Shown one piece after another: positions 20,396-42,356 of a stretch of 64,000 nt of DNA. Each line of letters begins with the position of its first letter. Position 1 is the stretch's first letter. The position numbers and the translations under genes were made by a program. The notes under the pieces are model-generated. The model saw only the letters and a program-made list of their open reading frames with translations, was not told where the DNA came from and did no database searches. This stretch comes from Patescibacteria group bacterium. GTDB taxonomy: Bacteria; Patescibacteriota; Patescibacteriia; UBA10025; JBIOWE01. The DNA lies in the NCBI GenBank assembly GCA_044868145.1, contig JBIOWE010000004.1, forward strand, positions 333,860-397,859, given 5' to 3'.

Positions 20396-20424
20396 TTGAC
20401 ACAACGACCCTTCTGTGATATAAT
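20396..20424 (+). promoter_or_regulatory. consensus sigma70 promoter (TTGACA-17-TATAAT) at the head of the giant-protein/T4SS-like operon
   Basis: ttgaca at 20396-20401, a 17-nt spacer, and tataat at 20419-20424. The first ATG of the downstream gene is at 20459. Confidence 0.6.
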
Positions 20425-20458
20425 TTTTGTACTAAACGAGAAAAAAATCAAGACAAAA

Positions 20459-21235
20459 ATGACCCCTGTGCCCGAACAAAAAAATGAACAAACGGAAGGG
20501 GTAAAAAATTTTAGTACGGGGCAAAATCTTTCGAAGAAACAACAGAAATTCGCACTTCTTCTCGTTGCGTTCATCGGTTTTTTGGCGATTGGTATCGCGG
20601 TGTATCAATTTTTTCATACCTTACGCGCGCCGTTTGCCATCAAAAACGTTGCTCTTAATATCAACGGTCTTACCACGCAACAAGCATTGATCGAGGGATT
20701 GCGCACGAAAGACACGGACGAGGACGGCATTTCCGATTACGACGAACTGTATACATACCGAACAAGCCCCTATCTTGCGGATTCGGATAGCGACAAGATT
20801 TCGGATAAAGACGAACTTGCCGCAGGAAAAAATCCAAATTGTCCGGAAGGGAAAGACTGTCTTCAGCCGAGCATTACCAATACTAATTCTCTCGTTGTCA
20901 TCCCGGGCACGCCCCAGGCAAGCGATATTCCGATAGCGACATTGCGCCAAACATTGAAAGACGCGGGCGCGCCGGAAGACGTTTTGAATGGTATGTCGGA
21001 CGACGAACTGCGCCAACTCTATCAAGAGGTAGTCCAGGAGCAAGGCGGCGCACAAAATCTGAACGCCGGCGCATCTGACGCAACAATATCTCTCAGTACG
21101 CTTCAGAATCTTACTCCCTCAGAAATTCGGCAGTTCTTAATCCAGAGCGGCATTTCTGAAAGCACACTCAATGACGTGAATGACGAACAGTTACAAGCCA
21201 TTTTTCAAGAGGCATTGGCACAATATACGCAATAG
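20459..21235 (+). CDS. membrane-anchored protein with Asp-rich Ca-binding-like repeats (DTDEDGISDYDE / DSDSDKISDKDE)
   Basis: About 258 aa with TM helix FALLLVAFIGFLAIGIAVY and thrombospondin-type-3-like D-x-D-x-D-G motifs. It is the first gene of the operon that leads into the giant protein. Confidence 0.5.
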   Translation: MTPVPEQKNEQTEGVKNFSTGQNLSKKQQKFALLLVAFIGFLAIGIAVYQFFHTLRAPFAIKNVALNINGLTTQQALIEGLRTKDTDEDGISDYDELYTYRTSPYLADSDSDKISDKDELAAGKNPNCPEGKDCLQPSITNTNSLVVIPGTPQASDIPIATLRQTLKDAGAPEDVLNGMSDDELRQLYQEVVQEQGGAQNLNAGASDATISLSTLQNLTPSEIRQFLIQSGISESTLNDVNDEQLQAIFQEALAQYTQ

Positions 21236-21246
21236 CCAAAAACCAG

Positions 21247-21372
21247 TGTCATTCTGACCCCGCCGAATGGCGGGGGAAGAATCCCCAAGCAAAAACGTAT
21301 TGGCAGGGAGATCCTTCGACTCCGTCCCTCCCCCTCGGCAAGCTCGAGGTCGGGACTTCGCTCAGGATGACA
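21247..21372. repeat. MITE-like repeat, family B copy 2
   Basis: tgtcattctgacc ... ctcaggatgaca termini. It shares internal blocks with the copy at 1274-1396 and contains the hairpin ccccgccgaatggcggggg, which is also found in the 46.3-46.6 kb cluster. Confidence 0.55.
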
Positions 21373-21390
21373 GCAACATAGCAAGCCCAC

Positions 21391-24300
21391 ATGTTTAGCA
21401 AAGAGAAAAAAACTAAACGTACCATACGATTCATCGCTGGTTTCATCCTGGTGAGTATACTGTTTATCATCGGTGGGACCGTGTTTTTGTATACGAGAAG
21501 CGCTCAGGCGCAGTTTGGTATTCCCGGCGTTCCACAGCCCACGATAGTTGTTGAGGACGTTCCGGCAAAAGTATTAAACGCGATCAATAAAGCGATAAAA
21601 ACTGCGGCCGATGTTGCGTTCAAAAACGTGCTTCGGCAGTTTTTGAATAAAATTGCGTACGACGCGGCGGTGTACGTCGCCTCCGGCGGCAAAGGCCAAA
21701 AGCCATTGTTTTTGACGAACCCCGGCCAACTCCTTGAAAAAACCGCGGACAATGCGTATGGCGAGTACCTCGATAATCTTTCAAAACAGGTTTGGGGAAA
21801 ATCATTGTGTGATCAGCCCCCGTTTATTAAAGCGCGTTTGGATGTTTGGGCGCGCCAGGTGAAAGACCCGAAGATCACGCAGGCAACCTGCCCTGTGTCC
21901 GCGGCTGTCGCGAACATTCAACGCAGCACGCATGAGCAACTTGTTGACTTTTCAAAAAAATTCAATCCGCAAGCTTCTGAATTTGGGGCGTATCTCTCTA
22001 TTATTTCCGGCGCGGAACAATTCAGCTCGAAGCAAGTTGAATCAACGAAATTCGTTAAGCAACTCGAAGGGGAGTTTGAGTCCGTGAAGAGTACGATCAC
22101 CGGAGCGGTGAAGACGCCCGCGCGCACCGTTGGCGACGCGCTTTCCAGCATCGTGCCGGAATCCATTAAACCGTATGCGACCTATACCGGTACGGCGATA
22201 GCCGACGCTATCGGCGTGTTCACGAATACGCTTACGAGTAAATTGATTGAGCGGATATTTAAAAAAGGTTTTAACCCGGAAGCAGACACGAGCTTTAGAG
22301 AATTTGTCGGCACATCTTCCTCCGGCGTCGCGGCGGCACGAACATTGTTTGCCTCACTCAATCAGCCGGATTTTAATGTTGGGGGATCGCAAGACATTCT
22401 CAATATACTCGCTTCTTGCCCGCCGACCCCAGCCTATAATAATTGCATTATCGATGAAAAATTCCGCATTGCCATTGAGCAGGAGTTAACCGTTGGAGAG
22501 GCATTGCAGCAAGGACTGCTTGATAGTTCAAAAATTTTCGGTTTCGACGCGCAAGGGCGCGAACCGACCTTTCGAAATGGCTATCCATACCGAAGCTTGC
22601 TCGTTTTGCGGCACTATAGAATTATTCCTGCCGGATGGGAGCTTGCTGCGGGGTACATTCAGAAATTTGAACCCGGCAACTACACGCTTGGCGGTCTGGT
22701 CGCGCAGTATGAACAGAAAGAGAAGTCGCCGGGCCAGCCAAATCCGTTTTATCATCTGATTGACCCGAACTGGGTGTTGAAAGCTCCGGAATTATTTTGT
22801 CGCAGGCAGGGCGCGGGCGAACAGGTGACCAACGAACAATTTAGCCCAACCTTTAATCTGGACGACCCAAACAATCAAATTTCCACCCGACAAGTGCAGC
22901 GAGCGGATTACTGCGCGGACGAGCAAACGTGTCTTTTTGAAAACGAGGACGGTTCGTGCAAACGGTTCGGCTATTGCGTCGAAGAAAAGCCAATCTGGCG
23001 GTTCCAAGGGACGCAATGCGCCTCCCAGTTCTCAACGTGTCAGGCATTTCAGAAACAAGACGGCACATCAGTCGCATACGTGCAAAACACCATTGATTAC
23101 AACAGTTGCAACGCGAACAACGCCGGCTGCCAAATTTATTGTACGGAATTCAACACCTCGACGAATCAATGGCAATGCGACACGGGCGACAATCTTAGTA
23201 CGGGAGAAAGTAATATCATCAGCTTCAACGGTCAGGTGCAATCGTGTAATGCAACCGCTGCGGGGTGCAGTGAATTCATTCGCACAAAAGACGGGCTCGG
23301 CACGAACATTCTTGCGAACGGAAGTTTTGAAAAATTCTCCGGCACGATTAATGACCAAACAAAGGATACCGTAGACCAATGGGGACTTGCTGACGTTTCG
23401 TCTGAAGCGTTTTCTGGACTTGCGGCCGCACAGATTGTTCCGAATGATTCCATTGTGAGCGTACCGCTTGCTACGGGCTTTGCGGTTGGAGGTCGGACAT
23501 TTACGTTGTCGTTTCATGGGAAGCGTATTAGTGGCGATTGCTCGAGCGGCAACACCTATTCACTCGAGACTCAAGGCGCGCCAAGCCCGGAACTTTCGAC
23601 CTCGTTCACCTATTTCGATTCATGGACCAGGTATGCGGGCACTATCACGTTCCCCGTTGGCACGCCCGCGACGAACTTGGTTGTCCGCGTTGGCAATAAT
23701 GCGACGTGTACGAGCGTGGTTGACGCCGTACAGCTCGAAGAAGGCAGCCAGCCCAGCGACTACAAGGACTACGGGTCAGTGAACAAATTATATTTGAATG
23801 GCCAGCGTATTTCCTGTTCTGATGAAGAAGTGGGCTGTGAGCAGTACACGTCCGTTACGACAGGCGAATCAATCCCAGGCAAAGTAACGAACCCCCAGAT
23901 TTGCGATCCGAATGACCCAAGCTCTTGTGACCAGTGCCCTGTTCAGTACTTGGGGTGCAAGGCCTATCGAGAAATGCCAATCACGAATACACCGCAACGG
24001 CCAGGGCAAGATATTATTTCCTTTATTGCTTCCACGGGCCAAGCGTGCCCCGCGTCAGCCGTGGGCTGCGAAGAGTACACGAATCTCGACGAAGTGGCGG
24101 GTGGCGGCGAAGGTCTGGAATATTACAGCTTGATTCGACAGTGCGTGAAAGACGATGCACCGAACATCGGCACCTACTACACGTGGGTCGGTTCGGATGA
24201 ATTCGGATATCAATTGAAAAAATTCGAGCTGAAAAAAAGTAACTTAGGCGGTGCGCCCTGCACGAACCTCGGCATTGACAACCCGAGTTTGCCCGGCCAA

Positions 24301-27300
24301 TATCAGTGGCCGAATTGCGTTGACGGACAAACGTTTGATGAAAACGGCGACGGTATATCCGAAACCCACGATGCGGCAACGTGTCCATTGAACCAGGTTG
24401 GGGTAAATCCAGATTGTACGCAGTTTTATGACGATATCGGCAACACCTACACAGTGCTCAAGTCAAGAATCGCCTACGCAGATGCGAACTGCCACCCATA
24501 CAGGAACACTATAGACGGACAGGCAGTGACGTACCATCTTATTCCTGGCCAGGGCATTCAGTGCTCGGCCCAGTATGCGGGCTGTCGCGAGTACAAAGGC
24601 AACGCCGGAACGAACATCCGCACACTTATTTCATCCGACTTTGAGTCCGGCTCCATTAATCCGTGGGCGTCTGATGCGCCGGGGAACTTGAACCCCAGCA
24701 CGGAATCAGTGCAAGTGGGCGGGCACTCCATGCTCGTGTTGACAACCGCCTCGACGAATGTGGAGACGCTCATAACGCAAGGGAAATCGTATCTCATTTC
24801 ATTCTGGGCAAAATCAGACAGCGCGGATACGATTGTGCGCGTTGGCTTTACGAATCCGAATATCGTTTTCCCGGGTCAGGCAGCCGTGAAAGTCCAGGAT
24901 TGGAACCGCTATCAAATGGGTCCGGTATTTTTGAACCAGCCAGTAACCGCGGGCGCGAAGCTTTCCATTTTCTCGGCTGGCGATGCATTCTTTGTTGATA
25001 ATATCATCGTCCAGGAAGTGGTCGATAATATTTATATGATCAAGGGTTCCTACCAAGAATGCGCCGGCTATGAAAACTGCGATGCGTACCGCGACCGCGA
25101 CAACCAAACCCATTACCTGAAATCCTTCTCGAATTTGTGCGCGTCCGATAAAGTCGGCTGCGAAGCAATGATTGACACGAAAAATTCAAGCTCGGCGTTC
25201 AGCGAACAGTTTACGGCGAATCCGGAGCGCGGGGATATGAATGGCGATGGCAAGTACACGTTCGAAGACGGTGAGTACATTATGAATTACATATTTAATC
25301 GGGATGGGCCAAAACCGTATCCAGTACTGCTTGCGGATGTAAACGGTTCTGGCACGATCTCGCTTAGCGACCAAATCTATCTTGTGAATTATATTAATGG
25401 AAACGGCCCCGCACCCGTGCCCTACAATGCGACAAAGCGAACAATCCCTGACGATAGCTACGTGTACATGGTCAATGACCCTGCAAAATACTGCGATGCC
25501 CAAGAAAAAGGCTGTTCAAGACTGGGGACCGTTAACTTTAATTTGAACAATCAGGTTTCCGGATACGCTGATACGTACCTCATCAATAATCCCGATACCT
25601 ATGGTCAGACGCTGTGCAAGTCCTCCGAGCAGAGTTGCGCCGCATTCAACACGGGCAGCGGTACGTCATACTTTAAAGATCCCAAGCGTCAATGTGAATA
25701 TCGAGATGTTGGTGCCGGCCGAACCGGCTGGTACAGAGTAGGGAGTGCGTCATTGACGCCGGATTGTCCGGTCGCGACTGGTTTTTGTTTCGGCGGCGCA
25801 AACGCAGGCGCTGCGTGTGACATCGATAGTGATTGCGGAAGCAACATATGCAAATCTTCTTCGGAAGGCCTTTCTCAGCCGACGAACGGGTGGGTCGGAA
25901 TCTGCCCGGCGGGCCAATCCGGTTGCCAGGAATACAGCGACCCGACGGAATCGCTCGATGCCTCCGTTGGGCAGTGCAAGGTGAATTTGAATACTGGGAC
26001 ATACGAAACGGTGTGTACCGCGGGCGACGGAGCTGGAACGACTAATTGCGATCCGAGCAATCCTGCGCCAGTCTGCGATCCGGATGCTGATGGTGTGAAT
26101 GGCGTCTGCAGCGTCAGCGCAGTGTCTTGCAAACCATATTACTACGTTAATCAAAGCATTGACACCTCATCTTGCTTCGGAACCGTGGACCCGCGTATCG
26201 GGTGCCGTCTGTTCTATGATAGCTCGCAAGGCGCAGCAACGTATGACAGCAGGGCGACCTATACAGAGGTAGATCGCATCAAGCAGCCAACAGCGCCAGT
26301 CACCTGCGCCGATCCAAACAATTGCGATTCAAACCTTATCGTCAAAGTCCGGAACGATCGGGAATGCGGTAAATGGCTCGAATGCGCGACGTCGACTAGA
26401 GTAACGAATACCCGTGGAGAGGTGGAAGAGCTCTGTTTCGATATTAAGGCGTGCAATAAGATTGATCCGAAAACAGGCGCATGCATAGGTACGCGTGCGT
26501 GCTCAAATGATTCGACAAAGAGTTGTACGACCAACGCGGACTGCACGGGAGGTGGAACCTGTGTAGAGCTTGATATTCAGAATTCTAACATTACGCCGCA
26601 CGCCTCAACAAACGTTGATGTCATTAAAAATTCGTCCGGTATTGTTAAGGCAGGCGTGAACTGGGGTTGCTCTAACGATCCTGCCATTGTATGTAAAATA
26701 GATGCGGACTGCGGCTTGGGTAATAAGTGTCAAATCATCAGCGGATTTTACCCCGTGCGCGCCATGACCGAGATTGGGTTAGGAGGCGCTAGCGACGTTG
26801 ATCTTGTAGCCACCGGCGACATGGGGGATATTGATCTGAACGAAGGGTACAAGAAAACGTTTCCAGCCGGTTGGGAACGATCAGGGGCGGACCTCACGCG
26901 GGTGATTGAAGAGGCCTTGGACGGGACGCCGGATCGAGCAAAGATTGACGAAAATAACGTGTTGGTGGTGGACACGAACAGCACCGTCGCCGGGGAAGGC
27001 GTGCAATACCAGCTAACCGGTGTTGGTTCGGCGGAATACGTGGTTTCGCTCAATGCTCGATTCGATGCAACCCCTGAACCGGACGACATGATCGCCGTGA
27101 AGCTTGGCTATTTTAATTCGCTAGGCGTGCTTATTGGTTCGCAATTGATTGGGGACCGTATTCAGCCGACCACCTCATGGGCAAAGTTCGTGTTCGGTCC
27201 TTTGACGCCGAATATTCCCGCGAGCACGGACTCGGTAAAACTGCAGATTGTGCAGGAATCAGCCTCAGGAGGAGACGTGCAAAACGGCATAACGTTTTAT

Positions 27301-29271
27301 CTGGATAACGTTTCCATGAAACCAACGCTCGAAGTGCAAAGCGATCCGCCGAACCCTTCCAATAAGTTAACGCGGACGTGCCGCATGTACCCGCGCTCGG
27401 ATTCAACCCTCTGTCGGTACATTGATAGTAATGGAGCGGAATACAAAGGGTGGTTCGGCTATTGTATTGAACAAGACCCGAAGAATCCGAGCCAATGCAT
27501 TACCTGGTGGCCCGTTGATATTATCGCCGGAGAGTCGAACGTGTTCGGTGCCGGCGTAAAAGCCGGGTATGCGGATCGTGCTCCCTTATATATGTGCGTG
27601 GATTCAAGAGGCAATTATAACCGCGCCGGCAACAAGTATATAATCACAGCTAATGCATATTCCATGTTTTATCTTGACGGCGACTCGTGCGGTAATTCTT
27701 CCGGGGTTGGAAGTTGCGGTCCGACTGCCACGGATATCTACGGTCGGAGTTATTCATATAATTGTAAAGTCAATGGTGCAGGGTTTACATTCGGCGGATG
27801 TGTGCGTAATGCGAGCGGAGGCGGACAAGCGAATTATCGCTATTGGAATATTCCTTCGGCAGGGCAACCAGAATATGGTCTTTTTGATTACGAAATCGAA
27901 CGTGTACTAGGCAGAAAAGTGTCAAATCGCGGTGAATATCCGAACTCCTTCGTCTTAACTGCCAACGATGCCACCACTGACCCAGACCCGGACTTTGTTG
28001 GCCTGCAAGGTAACCTTCCGCTTAACGGTTCCGCATGGGTGTTTAAGTGTTCTCACACCGATGCAGTTTGCGGCGGGCAAGATTTACGCGTTGCCCTAGT
28101 ATTCGACGGTCAGCATCGCTTAATTCGCTACTATGTCTACCTGGATGACTGGACGGGAAGCGAAAACGAAGCCGGAGCGTTCACTCTTGATTTTTATCTC
28201 CGTGAGCAGTGCGAAGCGCTCGCGCAAGTGGTAAAGTCCGGCGGCGATAACGTTGCTTGGGCTGGCAGGTCCTCTTCAGGGTCGCCGTATACCGCTCAAG
28301 ATTTGCAATATAATTATCTGACTGATTTTGCACCATTCGGCGGTGTGCTACAACCAAAGCCGGAAGGCAGCACGCCGGATAGTTGGGCAGTCCCTGTCTA
28401 CGCGGAGCAACGCCAAAATCCGCGAGATACTTCGACGGCTCGGGCGGGCAGCGCCTATGCGTGCGATAATGGTAACTGCAGCACGCGCATGTGCAGTAAT
28501 AGCAGCACGAACGATTGTTCGGACGATAATAAGATTAACACGTGCTTGAAAGGCCAGGATGGTGTGGTGAATACGGCGGATGATGGCTACTGTATTGGAC
28601 TTGGTCCATACCCGCCTGGCGGCACGGGCGGCGGCGTGTGGGCGAGCGGCAAAACCATTGCCCTGGGCATTGATCGCCTCAAGCGTCTATTCGCCGACGT
28701 ATACGTAAGTTGGGCATGGGACTATGCGCAGGGAAAATACGTTATTCAGCAGCCGATTATCAATGCATGGCAGGCTAGCTTTGACGGGATGAGTGAATGT
28801 CCCGGAGCACGCCCGGGTTACCCCAACGATTACTGCGGCATTCGGCCGCAAGCCGGCAACTTACGCATTGTTGCGGGCGGCTCTTCGTATAAATCCGGAG
28901 ATATTACGATCCAGAGCGGTGACACAATACAACTAACATTCACGAGTACGGCAGATCGCGAGCAACTACCGTTGCAGCGCATTCGCATCGATTGGCAGGG
29001 GAATGGCTTTAATACAAATCCCAACGATGGCGATGTTGATGAACCGTGGGGCTTTGCACCCAAAGGCGACCCCGCGAACCCGCATTGGTATAACCACACG
29101 TATACTTCCATTGACGCGGCCACCTGTCCGGGCACCGGCTGCAAGCCGACAATTCAACTAATCGACAACTGGGGTTGGTGCAGTGGTGGATCCGGTGTGG
29201 ACAGGCGGAACGTTCCGGACGGAGTATGTACGTCCGTTGACACCTATCCGGATGATATTATTGTCCAGTAG
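21391..29271 (+). CDS. giant (2626-aa) cysteine-rich extracellular protein with an N-terminal TM anchor and a dockerin-type Ca-binding repeat pair
   Basis: Single long ORF with N-terminal TM RFIAGFILVSILFIIGGTVFLY and more than 100 Cys in recurring C-x-C / CxxC contexts. A dockerin-like tandem (DMNGDGKYTFEDGEYIMNYIFNRDG...ADVNGSGTISLSDQIYLVNYINGNG) lies at about 25234-25410, with Gly-rich C-terminal stretches. The stop is 5 nt before the VirB6-like gene. Confidence 0.7.
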   Translation: MFSKEKKTKRTIRFIAGFILVSILFIIGGTVFLYTRSAQAQFGIPGVPQPTIVVEDVPAKVLNAINKAIKTAADVAFKNVLRQFLNKIAYDAAVYVASGGKGQKPLFLTNPGQLLEKTADNAYGEYLDNLSKQVWGKSLCDQPPFIKARLDVWARQVKDPKITQATCPVSAAVANIQRSTHEQLVDFSKKFNPQASEFGAYLSIISGAEQFSSKQVESTKFVKQLEGEFESVKSTITGAVKTPARTVGDALSSIVPESIKPYATYTGTAIADAIGVFTNTLTSKLIERIFKKGFNPEADTSFREFVGTSSSGVAAARTLFASLNQPDFNVGGSQDILNILASCPPTPAYNNCIIDEKFRIAIEQELTVGEALQQGLLDSSKIFGFDAQGREPTFRNGYPYRSLLVLRHYRIIPAGWELAAGYIQKFEPGNYTLGGLVAQYEQKEKSPGQPNPFYHLIDPNWVLKAPELFCRRQGAGEQVTNEQFSPTFNLDDPNNQISTRQVQRADYCADEQTCLFENEDGSCKRFGYCVEEKPIWRFQGTQCASQFSTCQAFQKQDGTSVAYVQNTIDYNSCNANNAGCQIYCTEFNTSTNQWQCDTGDNLSTGESNIISFNGQVQSCNATAAGCSEFIRTKDGLGTNILANGSFEKFSGTINDQTKDTVDQWGLADVSSEAFSGLAAAQIVPNDSIVSVPLATGFAVGGRTFTLSFHGKRISGDCSSGNTYSLETQGAPSPELSTSFTYFDSWTRYAGTITFPVGTPATNLVVRVGNNATCTSVVDAVQLEEGSQPSDYKDYGSVNKLYLNGQRISCSDEEVGCEQYTSVTTGESIPGKVTNPQICDPNDPSSCDQCPVQYLGCKAYREMPITNTPQRPGQDIISFIASTGQACPASAVGCEEYTNLDEVAGGGEGLEYYSLIRQCVKDDAPNIGTYYTWVGSDEFGYQLKKFELKKSNLGGAPCTNLGIDNPSLPGQYQWPNCVDGQTFDENGDGISETHDAATCPLNQVGVNPDCTQFYDDIGNTYTVLKSRIAYADANCHPYRNTIDGQAVTYHLIPGQGIQCSAQYAGCREYKGNAGTNIRTLISSDFESGSINPWASDAPGNLNPSTESVQVGGHSMLVLTTASTNVETLITQGKSYLISFWAKSDSADTIVRVGFTNPNIVFPGQAAVKVQDWNRYQMGPVFLNQPVTAGAKLSIFSAGDAFFVDNIIVQEVVDNIYMIKGSYQECAGYENCDAYRDRDNQTHYLKSFSNLCASDKVGCEAMIDTKNSSSAFSEQFTANPERGDMNGDGKYTFEDGEYIMNYIFNRDGPKPYPVLLADVNGSGTISLSDQIYLVNYINGNGPAPVPYNATKRTIPDDSYVYMVNDPAKYCDAQEKGCSRLGTVNFNLNNQVSGYADTYLINNPDTYGQTLCKSSEQSCAAFNTGSGTSYFKDPKRQCEYRDVGAGRTGWYRVGSASLTPDCPVATGFCFGGANAGAACDIDSDCGSNICKSSSEGLSQPTNGWVGICPAGQSGCQEYSDPTESLDASVGQCKVNLNTGTYETVCTAGDGAGTTNCDPSNPAPVCDPDADGVNGVCSVSAVSCKPYYYVNQSIDTSSCFGTVDPRIGCRLFYDSSQGAATYDSRATYTEVDRIKQPTAPVTCADPNNCDSNLIVKVRNDRECGKWLECATSTRVTNTRGEVEELCFDIKACNKIDPKTGACIGTRACSNDSTKSCTTNADCTGGGTCVELDIQNSNITPHASTNVDVIKNSSGIVKAGVNWGCSNDPAIVCKIDADCGLGNKCQIISGFYPVRAMTEIGLGGASDVDLVATGDMGDIDLNEGYKKTFPAGWERSGADLTRVIEEALDGTPDRAKIDENNVLVVDTNSTVAGEGVQYQLTGVGSAEYVVSLNARFDATPEPDDMIAVKLGYFNSLGVLIGSQLIGDRIQPTTSWAKFVFGPLTPNIPASTDSVKLQIVQESASGGDVQNGITFYLDNVSMKPTLEVQSDPPNPSNKLTRTCRMYPRSDSTLCRYIDSNGAEYKGWFGYCIEQDPKNPSQCITWWPVDIIAGESNVFGAGVKAGYADRAPLYMCVDSRGNYNRAGNKYIITANAYSMFYLDGDSCGNSSGVGSCGPTATDIYGRSYSYNCKVNGAGFTFGGCVRNASGGGQANYRYWNIPSAGQPEYGLFDYEIERVLGRKVSNRGEYPNSFVLTANDATTDPDPDFVGLQGNLPLNGSAWVFKCSHTDAVCGGQDLRVALVFDGQHRLIRYYVYLDDWTGSENEAGAFTLDFYLREQCEALAQVVKSGGDNVAWAGRSSSGSPYTAQDLQYNYLTDFAPFGGVLQPKPEGSTPDSWAVPVYAEQRQNPRDTSTARAGSAYACDNGNCSTRMCSNSSTNDCSDDNKINTCLKGQDGVVNTADDGYCIGLGPYPPGGTGGGVWASGKTIALGIDRLKRLFADVYVSWAWDYAQGKYVIQQPIINAWQASFDGMSECPGARPGYPNDYCGIRPQAGNLRIVAGGSSYKSGDITIQSGDTIQLTFTSTADREQLPLQRIRIDWQGNGFNTNPNDGDVDEPWGFAPKGDPANPHWYNHTYTSIDAATCPGTGCKPTIQLIDNWGWCSGGSGVDRRNVPDGVCTSVDTYPDDIIVQ

Positions 29272-34897: not shown

Positions 34898-35320
34898 ATG
34901 CAACAGTTTGTTGTTCCACAATTCATTGATGTAGAAAGCAAAATTATCGGTCCACTGACTGTGCGGCAGTTTTTGATTTTCTTATTGGCCGCCGGTCTAA
35001 TTTTTGCAACGTTCAAGATTTTTTCCTTTGCGCCAGCGGCCGTGCTCACTATTCTGATATTCGCAATCGCGGTTGTCTTCGCTGCGGTCAAAATTAACGG
35101 TCGGCCATTCCATTATTTTATTATTTCGCTTATCCAAACGAGCAAGCGGCCCCCACTGAAAATATGGGAAAAACAATTGACGCAACATGAGCGAAAACGC
35201 AAAGACAAAGAAAAGACTGAACGAACCGAGATTATTGTGGCAAAGAAACCATTGACAAAATCGCGCCTGACCGAACTTTCCCTCATCGTCGACACCGGAG
35301 GCGCGTTTAAAGAAGAGTAA
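34898..35320 (+). CDS. PrgI-family (VirB3-like) T4SS membrane protein
   Basis: 140 aa with the N-terminal signature MQQFVVPQFIDVESKIIGPLTVRQFLIFLLAAGLIF, followed by a second TM helix. Confidence 0.65.
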   Translation: MQQFVVPQFIDVESKIIGPLTVRQFLIFLLAAGLIFATFKIFSFAPAAVLTILIFAIAVVFAAVKINGRPFHYFIISLIQTSKRPPLKIWEKQLTQHERKRKDKEKTERTEIIVAKKPLTKSRLTELSLIVDTGGAFKEE

Positions 35321-35324: not shown

Positions 35325-36002
35325 ATGGCAAAAGACGAAAAAAAACGAAAAGAAGCTTATTCAACCCAGCGTTATTTGGACATTTTGGAAATCAAAGACG
35401 ACTGTGTTGTTTTGAAGGATGGCACGCTCCGCGGGGTTATGCTGGTTTCGTCGATCAACTTTGCGCTCAAGTCCGAAGAAGAGCAGAATGCTGTTATATC
35501 CGGGTACATGCAGTTTTTGAACTCACTGGATTTTCCCATTCAGATCGTCGTTCAATCACGCAAATTGAATATTGACGAATACATTGAACGACTCAAAGAT
35601 ATCGAGAAGCGGCAAACGAATGATCTCTTACGCATCCAAACGCAAGAATATCGTCAGTATATCGGTGAACTTGTCGAACTATCGGATATCATGAGCAAGA
35701 AGTTTTATGTTGTCATTCCATTCGCACCCGGCAAAGGAGGCACGAAGAAATTCTTTTCCGTGTTCCGAGAAGCGCTCTCACCGACGTCGGTGATCCATTT
35801 GAAACAAAAAAAATTCGAAAAGTATCGGGACGAGCTTGGTAAGCGTGTCGGATACGTTTTGAGCGGACTTTCTTCAACCGGCTTGAATGCGGTTCAGCTT
35901 GACACCCAGGGTCTCATTGAGCTGTATTACGACACGTACAATCCGGAAATCGCGCCCCAACAAAAATTTGTGGAAGCGAATAAACTTAATCTTGAAGCAT
36001 AA
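35325..36002 (+). CDS. VirB4/TraE-like conjugative ATPase, N-terminal fragment (split gene)
   Basis: 225 aa. LDILEIKDDCVVLKDGTLRGVMLVSSINFALKSEEEQNAVISGYMQFLNSLDFPIQIVVQSRKLNIDEY matches the N-terminal region of Gram-positive VirB4 (PrgJ/TraE). It ends with a TAA 2 nt before the ATG of the next ORF. Confidence 0.6.
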   Translation: MAKDEKKRKEAYSTQRYLDILEIKDDCVVLKDGTLRGVMLVSSINFALKSEEEQNAVISGYMQFLNSLDFPIQIVVQSRKLNIDEYIERLKDIEKRQTNDLLRIQTQEYRQYIGELVELSDIMSKKFYVVIPFAPGKGGTKKFFSVFREALSPTSVIHLKQKKFEKYRDELGKRVGYVLSGLSSTGLNAVQLDTQGLIELYYDTYNPEIAPQQKFVEANKLNLEA

Positions 36003-36004
36003 TT

Positions 36005-37918
36005 ATGGTTGAATTTTTCCGAAAACGCACGCCATTGCCAACGGAGCCCCTTGGGCAGCTGACGTCCGAAGAGCAGCGTCGGCTCCGGGAGCAAACGATT
36101 GAGGAAAAAAAGGAAACTCTGGAAGCCGAGCAGGTGTACAGACGCGGTGTTGTCACCGTTCGGGATTTGATCGCGCCTTCGGCGATGAAGGTAGAACCAC
36201 GGTACATGGAGCTCAATGGCAGGTTTGTTCGGACGATTTTCGTCGTCGCCTATCCGCGCTACATTAGCGTTGGCTGGTTCGCGCCGATCATCAATTTAAA
36301 CACGCCGCTTGATATTTCAATGTTTTTTTACCCGCTTGGCTCCGAGGTCATTTTGAAGCAGCTAAGAAATAAAGTTGGCGCGTTGCAAGCGCAAATTCTC
36401 TCGGACGCGGAAAAAGGCGCGCCGCGCGATCCTATACGCGAAACTGCGCTTCGCGACATAGAAAAACTTCGCGACGACTTGACGCAAGGAATTGAGAAAT
36501 TTTTTCAATATGCGCTCTATGTAACGTTGTACGCGGATTCAAAGGAGCAGCTTGAACAAATTTCGGAAAAAGTGGAAACGCTGTTCGGAACCCGACTCAT
36601 TTATACCAAACGCGTTCTCTATCAAGCAGAGCAAGGTTTTAATTCAACCCTGCCCCTTGGAACGGACCAGCTCATGATTGCGTTTAACATGAATACGTCG
36701 CCATGCGCGTCGTCGTTTCCTTTTATTTCTTCCGAGCTTACGTCTGACAATGGTATTTTGTACGGTATTAACCGTCATAATAACAGTTTGATACTTTTCG
36801 ACCGGTTTTCGCTGCAAAACGCAAATTCCGTGGTGTTTGCGACGTCAGGCGCCGGCAAGAGTTACGCAATCAAACTCGAAGTGCTCCGCAGTATGATGCT
36901 CGGAACGGACGTTATTATTATTGACCCGGAACGCGAGTACAAATATTTATCCGATGCAGTAGGAGGGACGTACATAAACATCTCACTGAACTCGGAAAGT
37001 AAGATTAACCCCTTTGACTTGCCGAAAAATCCAGGCGACGAAAAGCCGGCAGACATCATTCGTTCGGCGGTCATTGCGCTCAAGGGTCTTGTTCGTTTGA
37101 TGCTCGGGGAGCTTTCCCACGAAGAGGACGCGATTGTTGATCGTGCGCTCATCGAGACCTATGCCAAAAAAGACATTACACCGGACGCGGACCTTTCCAA
37201 AGTCGAATCGCCTCTTATGAGCGACTTTCAGGAAGTGCTTTCCGGCATGGCTGGAGCGGACAATCTCGTTACGCGGCTGCGAAAGTTCACCGAAGGCACG
37301 TTTTCCGGGTTGTTCAATAGTCCGACAAACGTGGAGATTAATAATCAACTGGTTGTTTTCACTGTACGGGACTTGGAAGATGAGCTGCGACCTATCGGGA
37401 TCCAAATCATTATTGCGCATATTTGGAACGTCGTCCGCTCGCAACTGAAAAAACGCATTCTTGTTATTGACGAAGGATGGTGGCTGATGCAGCATGAAGA
37501 TTCGGCCAAGTTTATTTTCGCGCTCGTGAAGCGATGCCGAAAATATTACCTCGGCATTACGACGATTACGCAAGACGTCACTGACTTTTTACGGTCGCCG
37601 TATGGCCAAGCCATAGTGACCAACTCCTCCATTCAGTTGCTTATGAAACAGTCGCCCGCGGCCATTGATATCGTCGCGAAGACTTTTTTACTCACGGAGG
37701 GCGAACGGTACCTGCTCCTCGAGAGTAACGTTGGCGAGGGAATTTTCTTTGCGGGCGCCAAGCACGCCGCCATTAAGGTGGTTGCCTCCTACACCGAAGA
37801 TCAGGTGATTACGTCTGACCCGCGCCAGCTCTTAGAAATCGAGCAAGCAAAAAAGGAGTTTGAGCAACAGTTTGCAGAGCAAGGCGCTGAACGCCAGCCC
37901 CAGGCTGCCGCAACATAA
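36005..37918 (+). CDS. VirB4-like T4SS ATPase (central and C-terminal ATPase domains)
   Basis: 637 aa with Walker A FATSGAGKSYAIK and Walker B/helical region ILVIDEGWWLM. It continues the VirB4 N-region homology (GRFVRTIFVVAYPRYISVGWFAPIINLNTPLDISMFFYP). Confidence 0.8.
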   Translation: MVEFFRKRTPLPTEPLGQLTSEEQRRLREQTIEEKKETLEAEQVYRRGVVTVRDLIAPSAMKVEPRYMELNGRFVRTIFVVAYPRYISVGWFAPIINLNTPLDISMFFYPLGSEVILKQLRNKVGALQAQILSDAEKGAPRDPIRETALRDIEKLRDDLTQGIEKFFQYALYVTLYADSKEQLEQISEKVETLFGTRLIYTKRVLYQAEQGFNSTLPLGTDQLMIAFNMNTSPCASSFPFISSELTSDNGILYGINRHNNSLILFDRFSLQNANSVVFATSGAGKSYAIKLEVLRSMMLGTDVIIIDPEREYKYLSDAVGGTYINISLNSESKINPFDLPKNPGDEKPADIIRSAVIALKGLVRLMLGELSHEEDAIVDRALIETYAKKDITPDADLSKVESPLMSDFQEVLSGMAGADNLVTRLRKFTEGTFSGLFNSPTNVEINNQLVVFTVRDLEDELRPIGIQIIIAHIWNVVRSQLKKRILVIDEGWWLMQHEDSAKFIFALVKRCRKYYLGITTITQDVTDFLRSPYGQAIVTNSSIQLLMKQSPAAIDIVAKTFLLTEGERYLLLESNVGEGIFFAGAKHAAIKVVASYTEDQVITSDPRQLLEIEQAKKEFEQQFAEQGAERQPQAAAT

Positions 37919-37924
37919 ACATCT

Positions 37925-38509
37925 ATGAACAGAAAATATCTTCTTTTTCTCGGCATCTTCGTCGGTTTGCTCCTTATTGCCGCGGCCGTTTTATTTTTTT
38001 TGAATCGGCAGCCAGCGGCAAACCAGAATACCGGCAATCAGAATACAAATACCCAGATCGTGGTGAATACTAATGTCACCAATACCGCAACGAACGTGCA
38101 AGCCGTTAATGAGCAGGAGAAGACGAAGCTCGAATTAAGCCGGATCGCTCTTTCATTCGCTGAACGGTTTGGGACATATTCGAATCAGTCGGATTTTGAA
38201 AATGTCGAAAGCCTGAAAGTGTTCATGACCGGCAGCATGCAAACGTGGGCCGACGGATTTGTGGCCAGCGCGCGCCAGCAGAACGCCGACTCCTCAATTT
38301 ATTACGGTGTCACCACAAAAGTCATTACGTCAAAGAATGTCCGTTTTGACGAAACGCACGCGGATTTTGTCTTTACGACCCAGCGAATAGAATCAACCGG
38401 CACGACGGATAACAATCGAGTTTTTTTCCAGGATATTTCCATCAAGTTCGTGAAAGAAGGATCGCAATGGAAAGTAAACGAGGCAACGTGGCTTGATATT
38501 AAAGCTTAG
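37925..38509 (+). CDS. membrane-anchored protein, possible VirB8-like (NTF2-fold) component
   Basis: 194 aa with a single N-terminal TM (LLFLGIFVGLLLIAAAVLFFL), an Asn/Thr-rich linker and a roughly 130-aa globular domain. Its position after VirB4 suggests a PrgL/VirB8 analogue, but this is inference only. Confidence 0.3.
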   Translation: MNRKYLLFLGIFVGLLLIAAAVLFFLNRQPAANQNTGNQNTNTQIVVNTNVTNTATNVQAVNEQEKTKLELSRIALSFAERFGTYSNQSDFENVESLKVFMTGSMQTWADGFVASARQQNADSSIYYGVTTKVITSKNVRFDETHADFVFTTQRIESTGTTDNNRVFFQDISIKFVKEGSQWKVNEATWLDIKA

Positions 38510-38510
38510 T

Positions 38511-39095
38511 ATGGCGAACGACATCGATAGCCTGCAGTCCGGACGAAGCCCGGGTTCGCGCGAGGAGCAGAAAACGATCGCGCAACAGCTTGAAAAAGAA
38601 ACGGCGCGCAAGATGTACCTGAACCGCCGCGCAACAGAGCAAACAACGCTTCGCGAGCTGCCGTCGAGTCGAACAACAAAACCAGAACAAGAAGAAGCGC
38701 GGTCCGAGGAAGAAGAATCTAGCCAGTCGTTCGTTGAGAATGAAGACCAGTCGAATGTGTCGCAGGGCCAGGAACGATCCGTGGCCAGTTCTTTTCAGCA
38801 AAAACTACAGATGGCCCGACAGGTCGCGAGCAAGGAGGTAAAAACAGAGATGTCAGTTGCTGCCGAAGCTACCGCAAAGGCTGCATCACGAGCCGCTGTT
38901 ATGGCTGTGCGAGGCGCGGCGCTTGCCGTGATCAACGCAGTCGGCGCGGTTATAGGATTTATTGCGGGGTTTGGCTGGCCGGTGTTACTTGGAATTTTAA
39001 TAGTTATTGTGCTTGGCTTTCTCATAAGTGATCCAGTATCTGCTTCCAAACTTGGCGTGTGCTTCATTGTTGAAGCCCTGGGCTTTAGTTGCTGA
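38511..39095 (+). CDS. hypothetical protein with an acidic N-terminal region and a C-terminal two-helix hydrophobic hairpin
   Basis: About 195 aa from the ATG at 38511. The C-terminus reads AAVMAVRGAALAVINAVGAVIGFIAGFGWPVLLGILIVIVLGFLI. Confidence 0.35.
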   Translation: MANDIDSLQSGRSPGSREEQKTIAQQLEKETARKMYLNRRATEQTTLRELPSSRTTKPEQEEARSEEEESSQSFVENEDQSNVSQGQERSVASSFQQKLQMARQVASKEVKTEMSVAAEATAKAASRAAVMAVRGAALAVINAVGAVIGFIAGFGWPVLLGILIVIVLGFLISDPVSASKLGVCFIVEALGFSC

Positions 39096-39100
39096 TAGAT

Positions 39101-40075
39101 ATGAATCATCGAACCAGAATTTTCCTCTTTTTTCTTGCAATCTTTGTTCTTTCTCTTTTTGTATTGCCGCACGCAGCCTCCGCCCAACTCCAGACGCTCA
39201 CGGACGTCTGCAAAGTGACAAATGAAAAGGACGCGATCCACCTGAATGTCGGGTTTTCGGTACCGGGCGTCATTTTCGAACTGCCCGCGGGCAGCGGCGA
39301 ATTTTACGTGAAGAATTTCGGATGCTATATCGGCGGGTTTTATCGTTACTTTGCCGGCGTGGCTGGCATTCTCGCGGCCGTGCTTATCATGTGGGGTGGG
39401 TATAAATACGTTACATCGTTCGGCAACCCTAGTAGACTCTCCGATGCGAAAGACACGATTCAACAGGCGTTGATTGGGCTCGCGTTCGTGCTCGGCACAT
39501 ACATTATTCTCTACACTATTAATCCGAACCTTGTCATTCTGCAAACGCCACAGTTGCCTATCATTCCTTCCGTTGAGCTCACCAAATCTTACGACTGGGA
39601 AAATGTACGATTCTGTCGAGAAAAAGCACAGTTTACAACTGCCAGCTGCGGAGGAATCTTCAATGCGGGTAAGACTGATGAGTGCCGAATGGTCAGCAAC
39701 GGTTGCAAGAATTCGAACGGCATTTGCGTGGCGGCCAAGAACAGTTACGCTGGATTAACGCGACCAGCCGATCTAAAACAAGGTGATATTTTCATCAATT
39801 GTCAGGAGTCAATATTGTTGTCCTACACAAAACCCGGGGAGTCCGAGGAGAAAGAGAGAACCTTGGTTGGAGATCCGAACGTGGACTGTGGCTACATCAA
39901 AGATGATATCGGCGGTCTACATTTAACCGGAAATCGAGGCGTTGGCATGAAATGCCCAGCGGATAAATATGGATGTGTGATTATTAATGACGCCGGGTTC
40001 GTGATTTACGGAGCGGGAGACTTACAACCTGGCAATGGAATTATTGGAGCATTTCTCAATGCAACATGCTATTAG
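39101..40075 (+). CDS. secreted protein with a pilin-like two-helix membrane module and a Cys-rich C-terminal domain
   Basis: Signal peptide MNHRTRIFLFFLAIFVLSLFVLPHAASA. The module GGFYRYFAGVAGILAAVLIMWGGYKYVTSFGNPSRLSDAKDTIQQALIGLAFVLGTYIILYTINPNLV is paralogous to the N-terminal region of the VirB1-like protein at 41346. The C-terminal domain carries about 12 Cys. Confidence 0.5.
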   Translation: MNHRTRIFLFFLAIFVLSLFVLPHAASAQLQTLTDVCKVTNEKDAIHLNVGFSVPGVIFELPAGSGEFYVKNFGCYIGGFYRYFAGVAGILAAVLIMWGGYKYVTSFGNPSRLSDAKDTIQQALIGLAFVLGTYIILYTINPNLVILQTPQLPIIPSVELTKSYDWENVRFCREKAQFTTASCGGIFNAGKTDECRMVSNGCKNSNGICVAAKNSYAGLTRPADLKQGDIFINCQESILLSYTKPGESEEKERTLVGDPNVDCGYIKDDIGGLHLTGNRGVGMKCPADKYGCVIINDAGFVIYGAGDLQPGNGIIGAFLNATCY

Positions 40076-40089
40076 AATAATAACGTACT

Positions 40090-41346
40090 ATGCGTAGAAT
40101 TTTTGTCATCGCTGGCTTCGCACTCCTTGTGGTAGGCATTGGTATTGCCATTTATTTTGTATTTTTCCGCGGCGCTGGTGGACCCACGAATAACGCGAAC
40201 GTCGGAAACGCGAACACGAACATTGGCGGTTTTCCTGTCACCAACGGCAACGTGAACGGCTCCATTGTAAACTTTACGGTTAACGGAAACGTCAACGTGG
40301 GAGGTCCAATTACGAATGCAGTCTTGCCGGAAATAGATACCATCGCTCGGGGAGGAAAAACGCTCACGAACGATCTTTCCCAACAAAGCATCATGGCTCC
40401 GTCGATCGGGCCAGACGGCAAAAGCGTCGTGTTTTACGATCCGATCACCGGACTGTTTTATGAGCTGTCGCCTGACGGAAAAACGAAACGACAGCTTTCC
40501 GACCAACGTTTTCCGAACGCCGAGAAAATATCCTGGGCGCCAGACGGCACCCGCGCCATTGTTACGTTTCCGGACGGAAGCAAAGTGCTGTACGATTTTT
40601 CGACCAAGCAACAAGTAACGCTCCCGCGCGAATGGGACAACATTGTGTTTTCCGGCGATGGAACAAAAATAGGGTTTAAAGACTTGCAGGAAAACGTGGA
40701 TAACCGGTGGCTCTCAATTGCGAATCCGGATGGGTCAAGCGTGCAATCGATTGAGCCAATTGGCGACAAAGGGGACGACGTTCAGGTTGCCTGGTCGCCG
40801 ACGAGCCAGGTGATAGCTTTATTCCGCGAGGGCAGTTCGGGTTCAACCCAGGAAGTGTTTCCCATTGGGCAGCACGGTGAGAACTTTAAATCCTTTGCCG
40901 TGGATGGCCGGGGCTTTGAAGGCGCATGGTCTCCGAAGGGCGACCGCTTGCTCTATAATGTGTTTAACGCGGGTTCGGACTACAAACCGACCCTTTGGAT
41001 CGTGGACGCATCGGGCGATAACATCGGGAACAACAACCGCGCTCTGGGCGTGCAAACCTGGGCGAATAAGTGCGTTTTCTCGAGCGATAACGTCACGATA
41101 TTTTGTGCGGTGCCGAGCGATTTACCAGAGGGAGCTGCGTTGTATCCGGACATCGCTCAAAACGTGCCGGATACGTTTTATCGCATCAATACACAAACGG
41201 GTTTGAGGACGGTTCTCGCGCAACCCGTCAATGCTCAAGGCGGCGGTTCGTATACGGTTCGATCGCCTTTTCTATCCGAAGGTGAACAGAATTTGTACTT
41301 CACGGATTCGTTGAGCGGGCGCCTCTATACAATTCAATTAAAATAA
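40090..41346 (+). CDS. TolB-like PD40/WD40-type beta-propeller protein, membrane-anchored
   Basis: 418 aa with N-terminal TM and repeated SWAPDGTRAIV / VFSGDGTKIGF / AWSPTSQVIAL / AWSPKGDRLLY blades. Confidence 0.55.
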   Translation: MRRIFVIAGFALLVVGIGIAIYFVFFRGAGGPTNNANVGNANTNIGGFPVTNGNVNGSIVNFTVNGNVNVGGPITNAVLPEIDTIARGGKTLTNDLSQQSIMAPSIGPDGKSVVFYDPITGLFYELSPDGKTKRQLSDQRFPNAEKISWAPDGTRAIVTFPDGSKVLYDFSTKQQVTLPREWDNIVFSGDGTKIGFKDLQENVDNRWLSIANPDGSSVQSIEPIGDKGDDVQVAWSPTSQVIALFREGSSGSTQEVFPIGQHGENFKSFAVDGRGFEGAWSPKGDRLLYNVFNAGSDYKPTLWIVDASGDNIGNNNRALGVQTWANKCVFSSDNVTIFCAVPSDLPEGAALYPDIAQNVPDTFYRINTQTGLRTVLAQPVNAQGGGSYTVRSPFLSEGEQNLYFTDSLSGRLYTIQLK

Positions 41347-42356
41347 TGGTCATAAGATTTTCTTTTCGCAAGGCCGTTCTTATTGGGCTTGCATTGGTTT
41401 TTGCATTCGTTATGTTCAACGTCCTTGCGTTAGCCGCGCACGCTCAACAGGATACGTCAAAGGGCGCAACTTTTCGTCCGAACATCACTATTCCCGGCTC
41501 CAAGTTTATCGCAGGCCAAGAAGTCGTAATTAACGGTGATACCATCGGCGAATGGATCGCCGCGTTTTACGTATTTTTTGTCGGCATCGCCGGCATACTT
41601 GCCACAGTCATGATTATGTGGGGCGGCTACAAGTATATTACCTCATTCGGCAATGCAACGCGCACGCAGGGCGCAAAAGATACGATCACCCAGGCGCTCA
41701 TCGGTTTAGCAATGACGCTCGGCGCTTACATTATCCTCCTCACCATCAATCCGAACCTCGTGCAGTTTAAAAGCTTGACGTTGGCGCCGATTCCCTCTCA
41801 CGAACTTGGCGAGCGCGGGGAAGCAAGTCTCAAAGGCGCGGCGCACTGGGACGGCAATAACGTGGCGACCTACGACAATCTCTTGAGAGCTGCGGCGGAT
41901 AGCTACGGACTTGACCGCGATTGGATGAAAGCAATTATGCTTGTTGAGTCAGGCGGGAATCCGAACGCGGTGTCGCCCGCGCAGGCATGCGGGCTTATGC
42001 AGCTTCTGCCTTCCACGGCGAACTTGACGTGTGAGCAACTAAAGAATCCCGCAGCAAACATTGACGCGGCAGGGAAGTATTTGCGAAGCCTGACGAACCT
42101 GACGTGCCCGCAAAATGCAACGTTGAGAGACAATACGGCTGTTTCCTGTGATCCGAGAAAAACGAAATGTCGAAACGGCGATATTCATTACATCGTGGCC
42201 GCGTACAACGGTGGCGTTGGGGCGAACTGTTCAAGCGTTTCTTGCCCGGGCAGTACCTGGTGGGAATGCCCGGTGAACACAGGATTTGACGAAACGAGAA
42301 GTTACGTTCAACTGGTCCAAACCGCATACGACAAAATAAAGCTGAATGGGTGGTAG
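41346..42356 (+). CDS. VirB1-like lytic transglycosylase (SLT domain) with an N-terminal pilin-like membrane module
   Basis: 336 aa. The N-terminal module IAAFYVFFVGIAGILATVMIMWGGYKYITSFGNATRTQGAKDTITQALIGLAMTLGAYIILLTINPNLV matches that of 39101. The SLT catalytic region is DRDWMKAIMLVESGGNPNAVSPAQACGLMQLLPSTA (ES...GLMQ). Confidence 0.7.
   Translation: MVIRFSFRKAVLIGLALVFAFVMFNVLALAAHAQQDTSKGATFRPNITIPGSKFIAGQEVVINGDTIGEWIAAFYVFFVGIAGILATVMIMWGGYKYITSFGNATRTQGAKDTITQALIGLAMTLGAYIILLTINPNLVQFKSLTLAPIPSHELGERGEASLKGAAHWDGNNVATYDNLLRAAADSYGLDRDWMKAIMLVESGGNPNAVSPAQACGLMQLLPSTANLTCEQLKNPAANIDAAGKYLRSLTNLTCPQNATLRDNTAVSCDPRKTKCRNGDIHYIVAAYNGGVGANCSSVSCPGSTWWECPVNTGFDETRSYVQLVQTAYDKIKLNGW

Follow-up and report, generated by a model that had tools for sequence, protein, structure and literature searches.

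The 64-kb stretch of contig JBIOWE010000004.1 that we analysed (hereafter the window) carries, at positions 20396-42356, a locus of ~22 kb that is a genuine and intact gene cluster for a Patescibacteria type IV secretion system (T4SS). It probably descends from the conjugation machinery of monoderm bacteria (MPF-FATA, with a CD1110-like VirB4), and we propose that it docks by means of a giant protein and carries a cargo that does not depend on a relaxase. The locus comprises 13 open reading frames (ORFs), all co-directional on the + strand and organized in two operons. The translocon set consists of an extended VirB6, a PrgI/VirB3 protein, a TrsD-like protein together with a VirB4 ATPase, and a VirB8-like protein. 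The cell-wall and extracellular set consists of two pilin modules, one of them fused to an SLT domain, an anchored beta-propeller and a small membrane protein. In operon 1, virB6 is accompanied by the genes for a giant Sec-exported, disulfide-rich protein and a TSP3-like Ca-binding membrane protein.

The evidence comes from genes read from the sequence and from Pfam, NCBIfam, PDB profile, Rfam, hydropathy and structure-prediction analyses. A preliminary description of this DNA had read the locus as a T4SS of Gram-positive type that lacks both relaxase and coupling protein, like those proposed for episymbiotic candidate phyla radiation (CPR) bacteria, and this is supported by the family matches and by a Pfam scan of 53 ORFs over the 64 kb that included every distinct ORF of at least 400 aa. 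The VirB3, VirB4, VirB6 and VirB1 families were all matched, VirB6 weakly. The idea is not new, because the window matches the published T4SS of Patescibacteria, already described as chromosomal and relaxase-less, point by point. In a survey of 2,474 Patescibacteria virB4 genes most group in the sister clade of MPF-FATA (Quiñonero-Coronel et al. 2025, Microb Genom, PMC12102498), and a 2025 review lists the Patescibacteria systems as a new T4SS group (PMC12857230).

Channel, ATPase and cell-wall components

Relatives of the VirB4-type ATPase g08 were sought in one genome per GTDB species, and the best 80 of 501 were compared in detail; synteny was followed by tblastn of each window protein against the related loci. 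These 80 proteins are 71-82% identical to g08, and nearly all come from records titled as Patescibacteria lineages (labels Patescibacteria, Falkowbacteria, Kerfeldbacteria, Uhrbacteria and Parcubacteria). The best plasmid-borne VirB4s are 29-36% identical to g08, belong to the CD1110 family and come from monoderm hosts (Firmicutes, Actinobacteria). Judged by similarity, on which the assignment rests, g08 appears to belong to the Patescibacteria clade of VirB4 that is sister to MPF-FATA. The same gene order recurs in the related genomes, and in the 80 loci it reads giant C-terminus-VirB6-448-379-PrgI-TrsD-VirB4-VirB8-pilin-propeller-pilinSLT-recG, with recG on the opposite strand. The arrangement in the window is that of Falkow-, Kerfeld- and Uhrbacteria-type (ABY1-like) genomes, which we take to be mostly members of the GTDB class ABY1. 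A Saccharibacteria origin was ruled out, since the relatives are Falkow-, Kerfeld-, Uhrbacteria- and Parcubacteria-type metagenome-assembled genomes (MAGs) and the cluster of Southlakia epibionticum differs. Many of the related contigs are titled 'uncultured Gammaproteobacteria bacterium', and single ones Pirellulales, Planctomycetota or Nanoarchaeota. These oddly titled contigs carry a 71-81% identical VirB4 of the Patescibacteria type in the same gene context and are probably mislabelled or mis-binned records.

The g08 protein scores 372.6 bits with the NCBIfam model conju_CD1110 (cutoff 325) and matches Pfam P-loop_TraG (3.8e-27) and AAA_10; an exact search for the protein gave no record. 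CD1110 is an MPF-FATA family, and the earlier comparison of gene order, PrgI and VirB4 with Gram-positive conjugative T4SSs is supported. The preceding gene product, g07, matches TrsD (5.6e-7) and, in precomputed annotation, the TraC-like family PF26593. It covers positions 93-284 of the NCBIfam model VirB4_plasma (2.2e-12), and g08 covers the complementary positions 270-892 of the same model. The preliminary description had spoken of a VirB4 split into two ORFs. Two ORFs there are, but the gene is not broken: a separate TrsD-like ORF of 221-277 aa, mostly about 225 aa, is found in 80 of 80 related loci, so the two-ORF VirB4 is an ancient and fixed arrangement and not damage. Recent pseudogenisation of VirB4 is likewise ruled out by these separate ORFs of similar size and by the published TrsD plus VirB4 arrangement.

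The small protein g06 matches Pfam PrgI above the gathering threshold (GA) (E 1e-8, 36 bits against 27), in agreement with its first reading as PrgI/VirB3-like, and a PrgI protein is found in 77 of the 80 loci. The VirB6/TrbL-like identity of g03 is upheld by a weak but recurrent family match together with its topology. Its N-terminal 450 aa match Pfam TrbL at E 4.6e-5, the score of 23.7 bits falling slightly short of the GA (25.9), and TrbL is the only recurrent family among 36 g03 orthologues, eight of which match it (best 3.9e-7). With a 19-residue window, the hydropathy scan gives eight hydrophobic windows, two of them overlapping, and thus about seven transmembrane (TM) segments; a hydrophilic C-terminal extension of ~550 aa follows. 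The position of g03 upstream of PrgI/VirB4 is conserved in related loci.

No sequence-level family was found for g09 in Pfam, and a PDB profile search of its family gave no meaningful match. Its structure, predicted from eight homologues, has an overall pLDDT of 79, with most of the C-terminal domain at 82-97, and a fold search of this model matches VirB8. Because the predicted fold matches VirB8 and an N-terminal TM helix precedes it, giving the VirB8 topology, g09 as modelled has the structure that defines a VirB8-like subunit. The anchor that had been suggested as a possibility is thus upheld by the fold match.

Pilin modules (PF18895, T4SS_pilin) are present in both g11 (E 5.8e-6, at GA) and g13 (6.6e-9) and are paralogous, being 45% identical over 168 residues. 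The SLT domain of g13 (6.5e-19), in which the ES, GLMQ and AYNGG motifs are present, would take the VirB1 role. Together with the 12-Cys domain of g11, these matches bear out the pair of pilin-module proteins first described, one Cys-rich and the other with a VirB1-like SLT domain. The propeller g12, also correctly recognized as TolB-like, reaches 23.1 bits with PD40 (GA 20.9) and matches TolB weakly; its position between the two pilin genes is kept in related loci.

Three further genes are conserved, at least in position. For g04 no match was found in Pfam, NCBIfam or PDB, and the gene is kept after VirB6 in related loci. For g05 there is no family or PDB match in Pfam, NCBIfam or the PDB profile search; 73 of the 80 loci have a homologue immediately upstream of PrgI, and a homologue search returned nine proteins, none of them annotated. 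For g10 there is no Pfam or NCBIfam family match, and a positional analogue of the same architecture is present in a related locus (L002).

Table 1. Features of the T4SS locus with their coordinates in the window
Feature	Coordinates	Strand	Description
Promoter P1	20396..20424	+	TTGACA-17-TATAAT, TGn extended -10; 12/12 match
g01	20459..21235	+	258-aa bitopic membrane protein with TSP3-like Asp-rich Ca-binding repeat; gene call
Hairpin between g01 and g02	21251..21282	+	GC-rich; 14-nt arms, 86% complementary
g02	21391..29271	+	2626-aa giant Cys-rich exported protein; ORF intact
g03	29339..32053	+	Extended VirB6/TrbL-like polytopic protein; 904 aa by gene call, 925 aa from ATG 29276
g04	32056..33402	+	448-aa predicted cytoplasmic helical protein, last of operon 1; gene order
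Intrinsic-terminator-like hairpin and T run ending operon 1	33420..33455	+	10-pair stem (33420-33445), then GTTTTTAT
Promoter P2	33687..33715	+	TTGATT-17-TATAAT with TGn; 10/12 plus TG
g05	33797..34894	+	365-aa predicted cytoplasmic protein with Pro-rich linker, first of operon 2; gene order
g06	34898..35320	+	PrgI/VirB3-like small membrane protein; Pfam PrgI
g07	35325..36002	+	225-aa TrsD/TraC-like protein, equivalent of the VirB4 N-terminal domain; NCBIfam
g08	36005..37918	+	637-aa VirB4-type ATPase; Walker A SGAGKS and Walker B VIDEGW, both intact
g09	37925..38509	+	194-aa VirB8-like bitopic protein; N-terminal TM segment and NTF2-like domain
g10	38493..39095	+	200-aa low-complexity protein with C-terminal TM helices; gene call
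g11	39089..40075	+	328 aa; VirB2-like pilin module fused to 12-Cys C-terminal domain
g12	40090..41346	+	418-aa membrane-anchored PD40-type beta-propeller; N-terminal TM segment
g13	41346..42356	+	336 aa; VirB2-like pilin module fused to SLT lytic transglycosylase
Inverted repeat directly after g13	42368..42438	.	Imperfect, 22-24 nt; no Rfam match

The giant protein and its link to virB6

The giant ORF noted in the preliminary description is intact, and its product g02 has 98 Cys and a single N-terminal hydrophobic/TM segment within a Sec-type N-terminus ending in AQA. Beyond this signal or anchor, the protein has an N-terminal domain that is conserved, jelly rolls resembling CBMs, a segment resembling a dockerin and numerous disulfide modules. 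In Pfam, CBM_4_9 (24.1 bits, GA 25.9) and Dockerin_1 (22.4 bits, GA 22.9) come near to threshold, and the dockerin segment matches a solved PDB dockerin at 0.003; no cohesin partner was identified. In the AlphaFold (AF2) model of residues 36-1200, whose pLDDT averages 65, the beta-sandwich domains are confident, and a fold search matches them to CBM4/16/22 modules at E~1e-7. No known fold was found for the conserved N-terminal domain of 460 residues, whose family numbers more than 1000 representative clusters, and the strongly conserved domain at 335-475 (GYPYRSL...DPNWVLKAP) has no assignment.

The family is large. Among the scored candidates, g02 has 371 homologues with E<=1e-5; lengths range from 1627 to 3615 aa in the 120 listed, and all named homologues among the matches listed are from Patescibacteria. 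Conservation extends over the full length and is strongest at residues 50-1500, and 40 Cys are invariant across 38 diverse family members. The N-terminal 465 residues by themselves match 1233 representatives (50% clustering), and 1087 of these reach E<=1e-10. Nearly all of the 150 matches listed are to very large proteins and start somewhere in their first few hundred residues.

The companion g01 has one TM segment and weak matches to Pfam TSP3_bac and to thrombospondin-type MtsD/CglD models in NCBIfam. It had been described as an Asp-rich membrane protein; the membrane location stands, but with 7.2% Asp overall the protein is Asp-rich only in its TSP3-like repeat. The order ksgA-g01-giant-VirB6-g04 is kept in six further loci (L082-L087), where homologues of g01 (218-290 aa, 30-45% identical, TSP3-like) stand directly upstream of the giant gene. 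In two of these, L082 and L086, the PrgI-VirB4 module does not follow directly, yet the giant-VirB6-g04 block is intact. The intervening genes of L082 include a PEP-utilising enzyme, a HAD hydrolase and an IS200-like gene, and VirB4 lies elsewhere on the same contig. This IS200-like gene, at 24210-24779 of the locus, is among those that part the two T4SS modules in this close relative (JBAZCI010000003.1). In L083, from a complete 1.08-Mb genome (CP060223.1), three consecutive large genes at 10001-25368, encoding 2046, 1523 and 1545 aa, replace the single giant gene and precede a TrbL-like gene. The second has fn3/Big_7-type matches, and the arrangement suggests that the extracellular component has expanded in modules or has been split.

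In 49 related loci the DNA upstream of virB4 extends for at least 9 kb, and 37 of these show VirB6. The C-terminus of the giant protein directly precedes it in 26 of the 37 and another large Cys-rich ORF does so in 3 more; in several of the remaining loci VirB6 lies at the edge of the fetched DNA, with its upstream neighbour out of view. In the window, the called VirB6 start comes 68 nt after the stop codon of the giant gene; upstream of this stop the frame of VirB6 is already open. Only three weak terminator-like matches occur on the + strand between 29271 and 33420 (29438-29455, 29870-29889 and 29914-29932), all inside the VirB6 frame.

Each operon is preceded by an extended -10 promoter (12/12 plus TG for P1, 10/12 plus TG for P2), which agrees with the two co-directional operons first described. 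P1 is the sole extended -10 site in the window with 0 mismatches; six sites with at most two mismatches were observed against 0.34 expected, and all six lie upstream of genes. Operon 1 would consist of g01-g04 served by one promoter and operon 2 would start at g05, and the two-operon description appears sound on the sequence signals. Position 20396, previously given as the start of the locus, is the -35 hexamer and not a start codon; the first gene begins at the ATG at 20459, in agreement with the gene call. The hairpin between g01 and g02 is a possible attenuator and the inverted repeat after g13 a possible terminator. A perfect 10-nt hairpin (TCCCCTCCTT/AAGGAGGGGA) at 33506-33528, inside the 394-nt gap between the operons, has no Rfam match.

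We read g02 and VirB6 as a conserved module that is presumably co-expressed. A different reading accepts the T4SS and takes the giant protein and g01 to be an unrelated surface adhesin pair lying between ksgA and virB6; we find this doubtful. The Sec-type signal means that the giant protein needs no T4SS for its export, and the protein is tightly linked to ksgA too. [quoted passage not shown] Two unrelated neighbours are harder to reconcile with the short distance and open reading frame at the giant-VirB6 junction, with the lack of a convincing terminator between the two genes, with the single promoter that serves g01 through g04, and with a giant-VirB6-g04 block that holds when parted from the VirB4 module.

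Some relatives carry an extra ORF within the T4SS cluster. It is DsbA-like in L002 (15697-16341, with a CPYC motif) and in L087 (26802-27545, with DSBA/Thioredoxin_4 Pfam matches). An ORF of 209-214 aa at the same position, between the propeller and pilin-SLT genes, is present in L001 (15885-16529) and L005 (14797-15426); the window locus has no counterpart of this ORF. A DsbA inside the cluster would fit the oxidative folding of Cys-rich extracellular parts and a disulfide-rich extracellular partner of the T4SS, which speaks against an unrelated adhesin.

Tentatively, and with less confidence than we place in the T4SS itself, we propose that g02 and g01 are integral but unrecognised extracellular parts of the T4SS. 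They would form a host-glycan docking module of Patescibacteria other than Saccharibacteria that sets the host range, with the N-terminal domain coupling it to the channel or pilus, and would supply the adhesin missing from the 2025 survey. The survey states that 'No adhesins ... were detected' (PMC12102498), and its text and two of its supplements make no mention of a giant CBM/dockerin protein or a TSP3-like protein. The consistent company of a giant protein and the channel gene is an under-described feature of an otherwise published system.

Chromosomal setting, mobility and cargo

The locus is chromosomal and is not an island with recognisable borders, since its flanks are housekeeping genes and the GC content equals that of the flanks, with no compositional break. 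Upstream lie genes for leucyl-tRNA synthetase, Sua5, a major facilitator superfamily transporter and KsgA (all by Pfam). Downstream, RecG on the opposite strand is followed by tRNAs, histidyl-tRNA synthetase, a ComF-like protein and a ClpB/ClpC-type Clp ATPase. The Rfam search of the window gave three tRNAs and nothing else. None of the 53 Pfam-scanned ORFs of the 64-kb window matches a relaxase, an integrase or a coupling protein of the VirD4/TcpA type, so that the absence of VirD4 and relaxase from the window, reported earlier, stands. No type IV coupling protein (T4CP) domain occurs in any window ORF of at least 400 aa, and no att-like boundary was found within the 64 kb. No relaxase with an oriT was found in the window: there is no relaxase family match, and the inverted repeats look like terminators.

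A conjugative element or its remnant, with relaxase, T4CP and oriT acting in trans from elsewhere on the chromosome or decayed, is in our view very improbable. It is true that VirB4 passes the cutoff of the conjugal-transfer family CD1110, that the gene order resembles pCF10-type operons and that an IS200-like Y1 transposase gene is present at 7752-8351 (+) of the window. In the survey, T4CP/VirD4 homologues are common in Patescibacteria, mostly far from virB4, and relaxases, although essentially absent, number 109 in 103 genomes (PMC12102498). The 64 kb, however, contain no relaxase, T4CP, integrase or att-like boundary and no compositional break, and the same locus in the same housekeeping context recurs across many divergent genomes, which points to vertical inheritance and not to mobility. 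All core ORFs are intact and conserved, which argues against a decaying remnant. An ordinary integrative and conjugative element (ICE) is ruled out by the flanks, the synteny and the lack of relaxase (MOB), T4CP and integrase in the window. Classical conjugation is thus disfavoured because relaxase and T4CP are lacking nearby, and we infer a contact-dependent, non-conjugative role.

The cargo may be exported protein or imported nucleic acid; the comM/comF/recG neighbourhood would favour the second. A machine dedicated to importing DNA or nucleotides from the host or environment, of the ComB type of Helicobacter or the archaeal Ced type, would feed a cell unable to make nucleotides; we consider this unlikely, though less so than conjugation. 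Competence and recombination genes are close by, with a comM-like (Mg-chelatase/ChlI) gene at 8335-9879 (+), recG at 43050-45113 (-) and a comF-like gene at 49999-50730 (-), encoding a double zinc ribbon and a PRTase domain, flanking the locus. Functional coordination has been suggested for comF, recG and radA near ABY1 T4SSs (PMC12102498), and nucleotide uptake has been proposed as a candidate role (PMC11665869). A system without T4CP or relaxase fits import, and g08 weakly matches the DNA-import ATPase CedB (3.7e-10, NCBIfam). The CedB match is nevertheless far weaker than that to conjugative VirB4 (39 against 373 bits), and the recG synteny may be positional only. The comM- and comF-like genes lie in the window but outside both T4SS operons, and no comEC or dprA is seen in the locus. 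According to the 2025 review (PMC12857230, citing Wang 2023), deletion of comEC in S. epibionticum abolishes competence and not viability, while the T4SS is essential; on that account the essential role is not classical transformation.

Two other groups of genes in the window deserve mention. Genes for PF05635 ('23S rRNA intervening sequence protein') four-helix-bundle proteins lie at 9925-10290 (+) and 55023-55394 (-), and the latter additionally matches bAvd-like. At 56522-63844 (+) there are three tandem paralogous large ORFs of 1086, 681 and 652 aa without Pfam match. Each is anchored by a single N-terminal TM segment, after which comes a Pro-rich motif (PPGDN, PAPQDN or PPPGSN), and they share a C-terminal motif ending in ...FVKG...CRPL; they resemble secreted or surface fibre proteins. 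They are preceded by an extended -10 promoter (56522-56550), the -35 box of which had been listed as the TTG start of the first ORF.

Relation to known systems and significance

The closest published counterpart is the T4SS of ABY1-class Patescibacteria. The survey describes a Patescibacteria set of TrsD, PrgI, VirB6 and VirB2-like pilins, with VirB8 homologues nearly confined to ABY1; ksgA occurs near virB4, joined in ABY1 by recG, radA and comF (PMC12102498). Like these systems, the window locus is chromosomal, has a VirB4 nearest to Patescibacteria MAGs, a separate TrsD-like gene adjoining virB4, a VirB8-like protein and ksgA, recG and comF as neighbours, and is without relaxase or nearby T4CP (here within the window). 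It differs in fusing the VirB1 function to a pilin module.

In S. epibionticum, Tn-seq showed the T4SS cluster SEML1_0006-0019 to be essential for epibiotic growth; pilin genes were noted there and relaxase and coupling protein are lacking (Wang et al. 2023, Cell, PMC10633639). The Patescibacteria T4SS is the first reported to be essential for its carrier, and its role has been described as completely unknown (PMC12857230, PMC11665869); all functional work on it comes from Saccharibacteria. The two loci share VirB4, an upstream TrsD-like gene, PrgI, VirB6-like protein extended by a long hydrophilic tail, pilin genes, an NTF2-like protein and a hydrolase of the lysozyme type, and neither cluster has a relaxase or T4CP. 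S. epibionticum differs in having six tandem short pilins, two VirB6-like proteins, a hydrolase of the phage-tail-lysozyme type and no giant protein. Gene order and orientation differ as well, and it is in S. epibionticum that essentiality was shown.

The MPF-FATA systems (pCF10 prgA-pcfG; CTn2/CD1110 subclass) have in common with the window the VirB4 family, PrgI adjoining VirB4, VirB6 upstream, and VirB8-like and cell-wall hydrolase genes downstream. In pCF10 the gene for the large surface adhesin PrgB stands at the head of the operon, as the giant gene does here; the giant protein has no detectable homology to PrgB. Unlike MPF-FATA systems, the window locus lacks relaxase, T4CP and oriT and is chromosomal and vertically inherited. 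It also encodes VirB2-like pilins, which are normally absent from Gram-positive systems (PMC12857230). A fainter likeness is to the T4SS of mollicute ICEs (Mbov_0392-0397): the pilin modules weakly match the Mbov_0395 pilin-like family and g07 and g08 match the Mbov_0397 VirB4 model, all below curated cutoffs, and those systems reside on mobile ICEs.

On this basis we propose how the machine may work. VirB4 and its TrsD-like partner, anchored by PrgI/VirB3 and the VirB8-like protein around VirB6, would drive the channel, and the ATPase would power the assembly of a short pilus or conduit. The pilin-SLT protein may open the wall locally, with the pilin modules and propeller making up the extracellular part. 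Surface glycans of the partner or host would be bound by the giant protein together with the Ca-binding g01, and the giant protein would hold the channel against that surface, in a role like that of PrgB-type adhesins. The machine would then move cargo other than relaxase-piloted DNA between epibiont and host.

Several points weigh against the proposal of a complete T4SS that docks through its giant protein. For VirB6 the Pfam score stays under the gathering threshold, and a PDB search with the family profile gave no sequence match. Neither a fold nor a family can be recognised for g04, g05 and g10. The first 300 residues of the g02 model are of low confidence. A T4CP or relaxase may lie elsewhere on the 414-kb contig, since the absence covers the 64-kb window. 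The only genetics come from Saccharibacteria, whose cluster has no giant protein, and the giant protein, with its Sec-type signal, might simply be an adhesin neighbour anchored next to ksgA.

The locus is a clean, intact example from a different uncultivated class and introduces no new principle. To the published picture it adds operons with defined boundaries, a VirB8 supported by its fold, a fusion of pilin and SLT, and a conserved giant protein linked to virB6. Its value lies mostly in the giant-protein/VirB6 module: if the giant protein is indeed the host-docking element, it would provide a handle on host specificity in lineages whose hosts are unknown.

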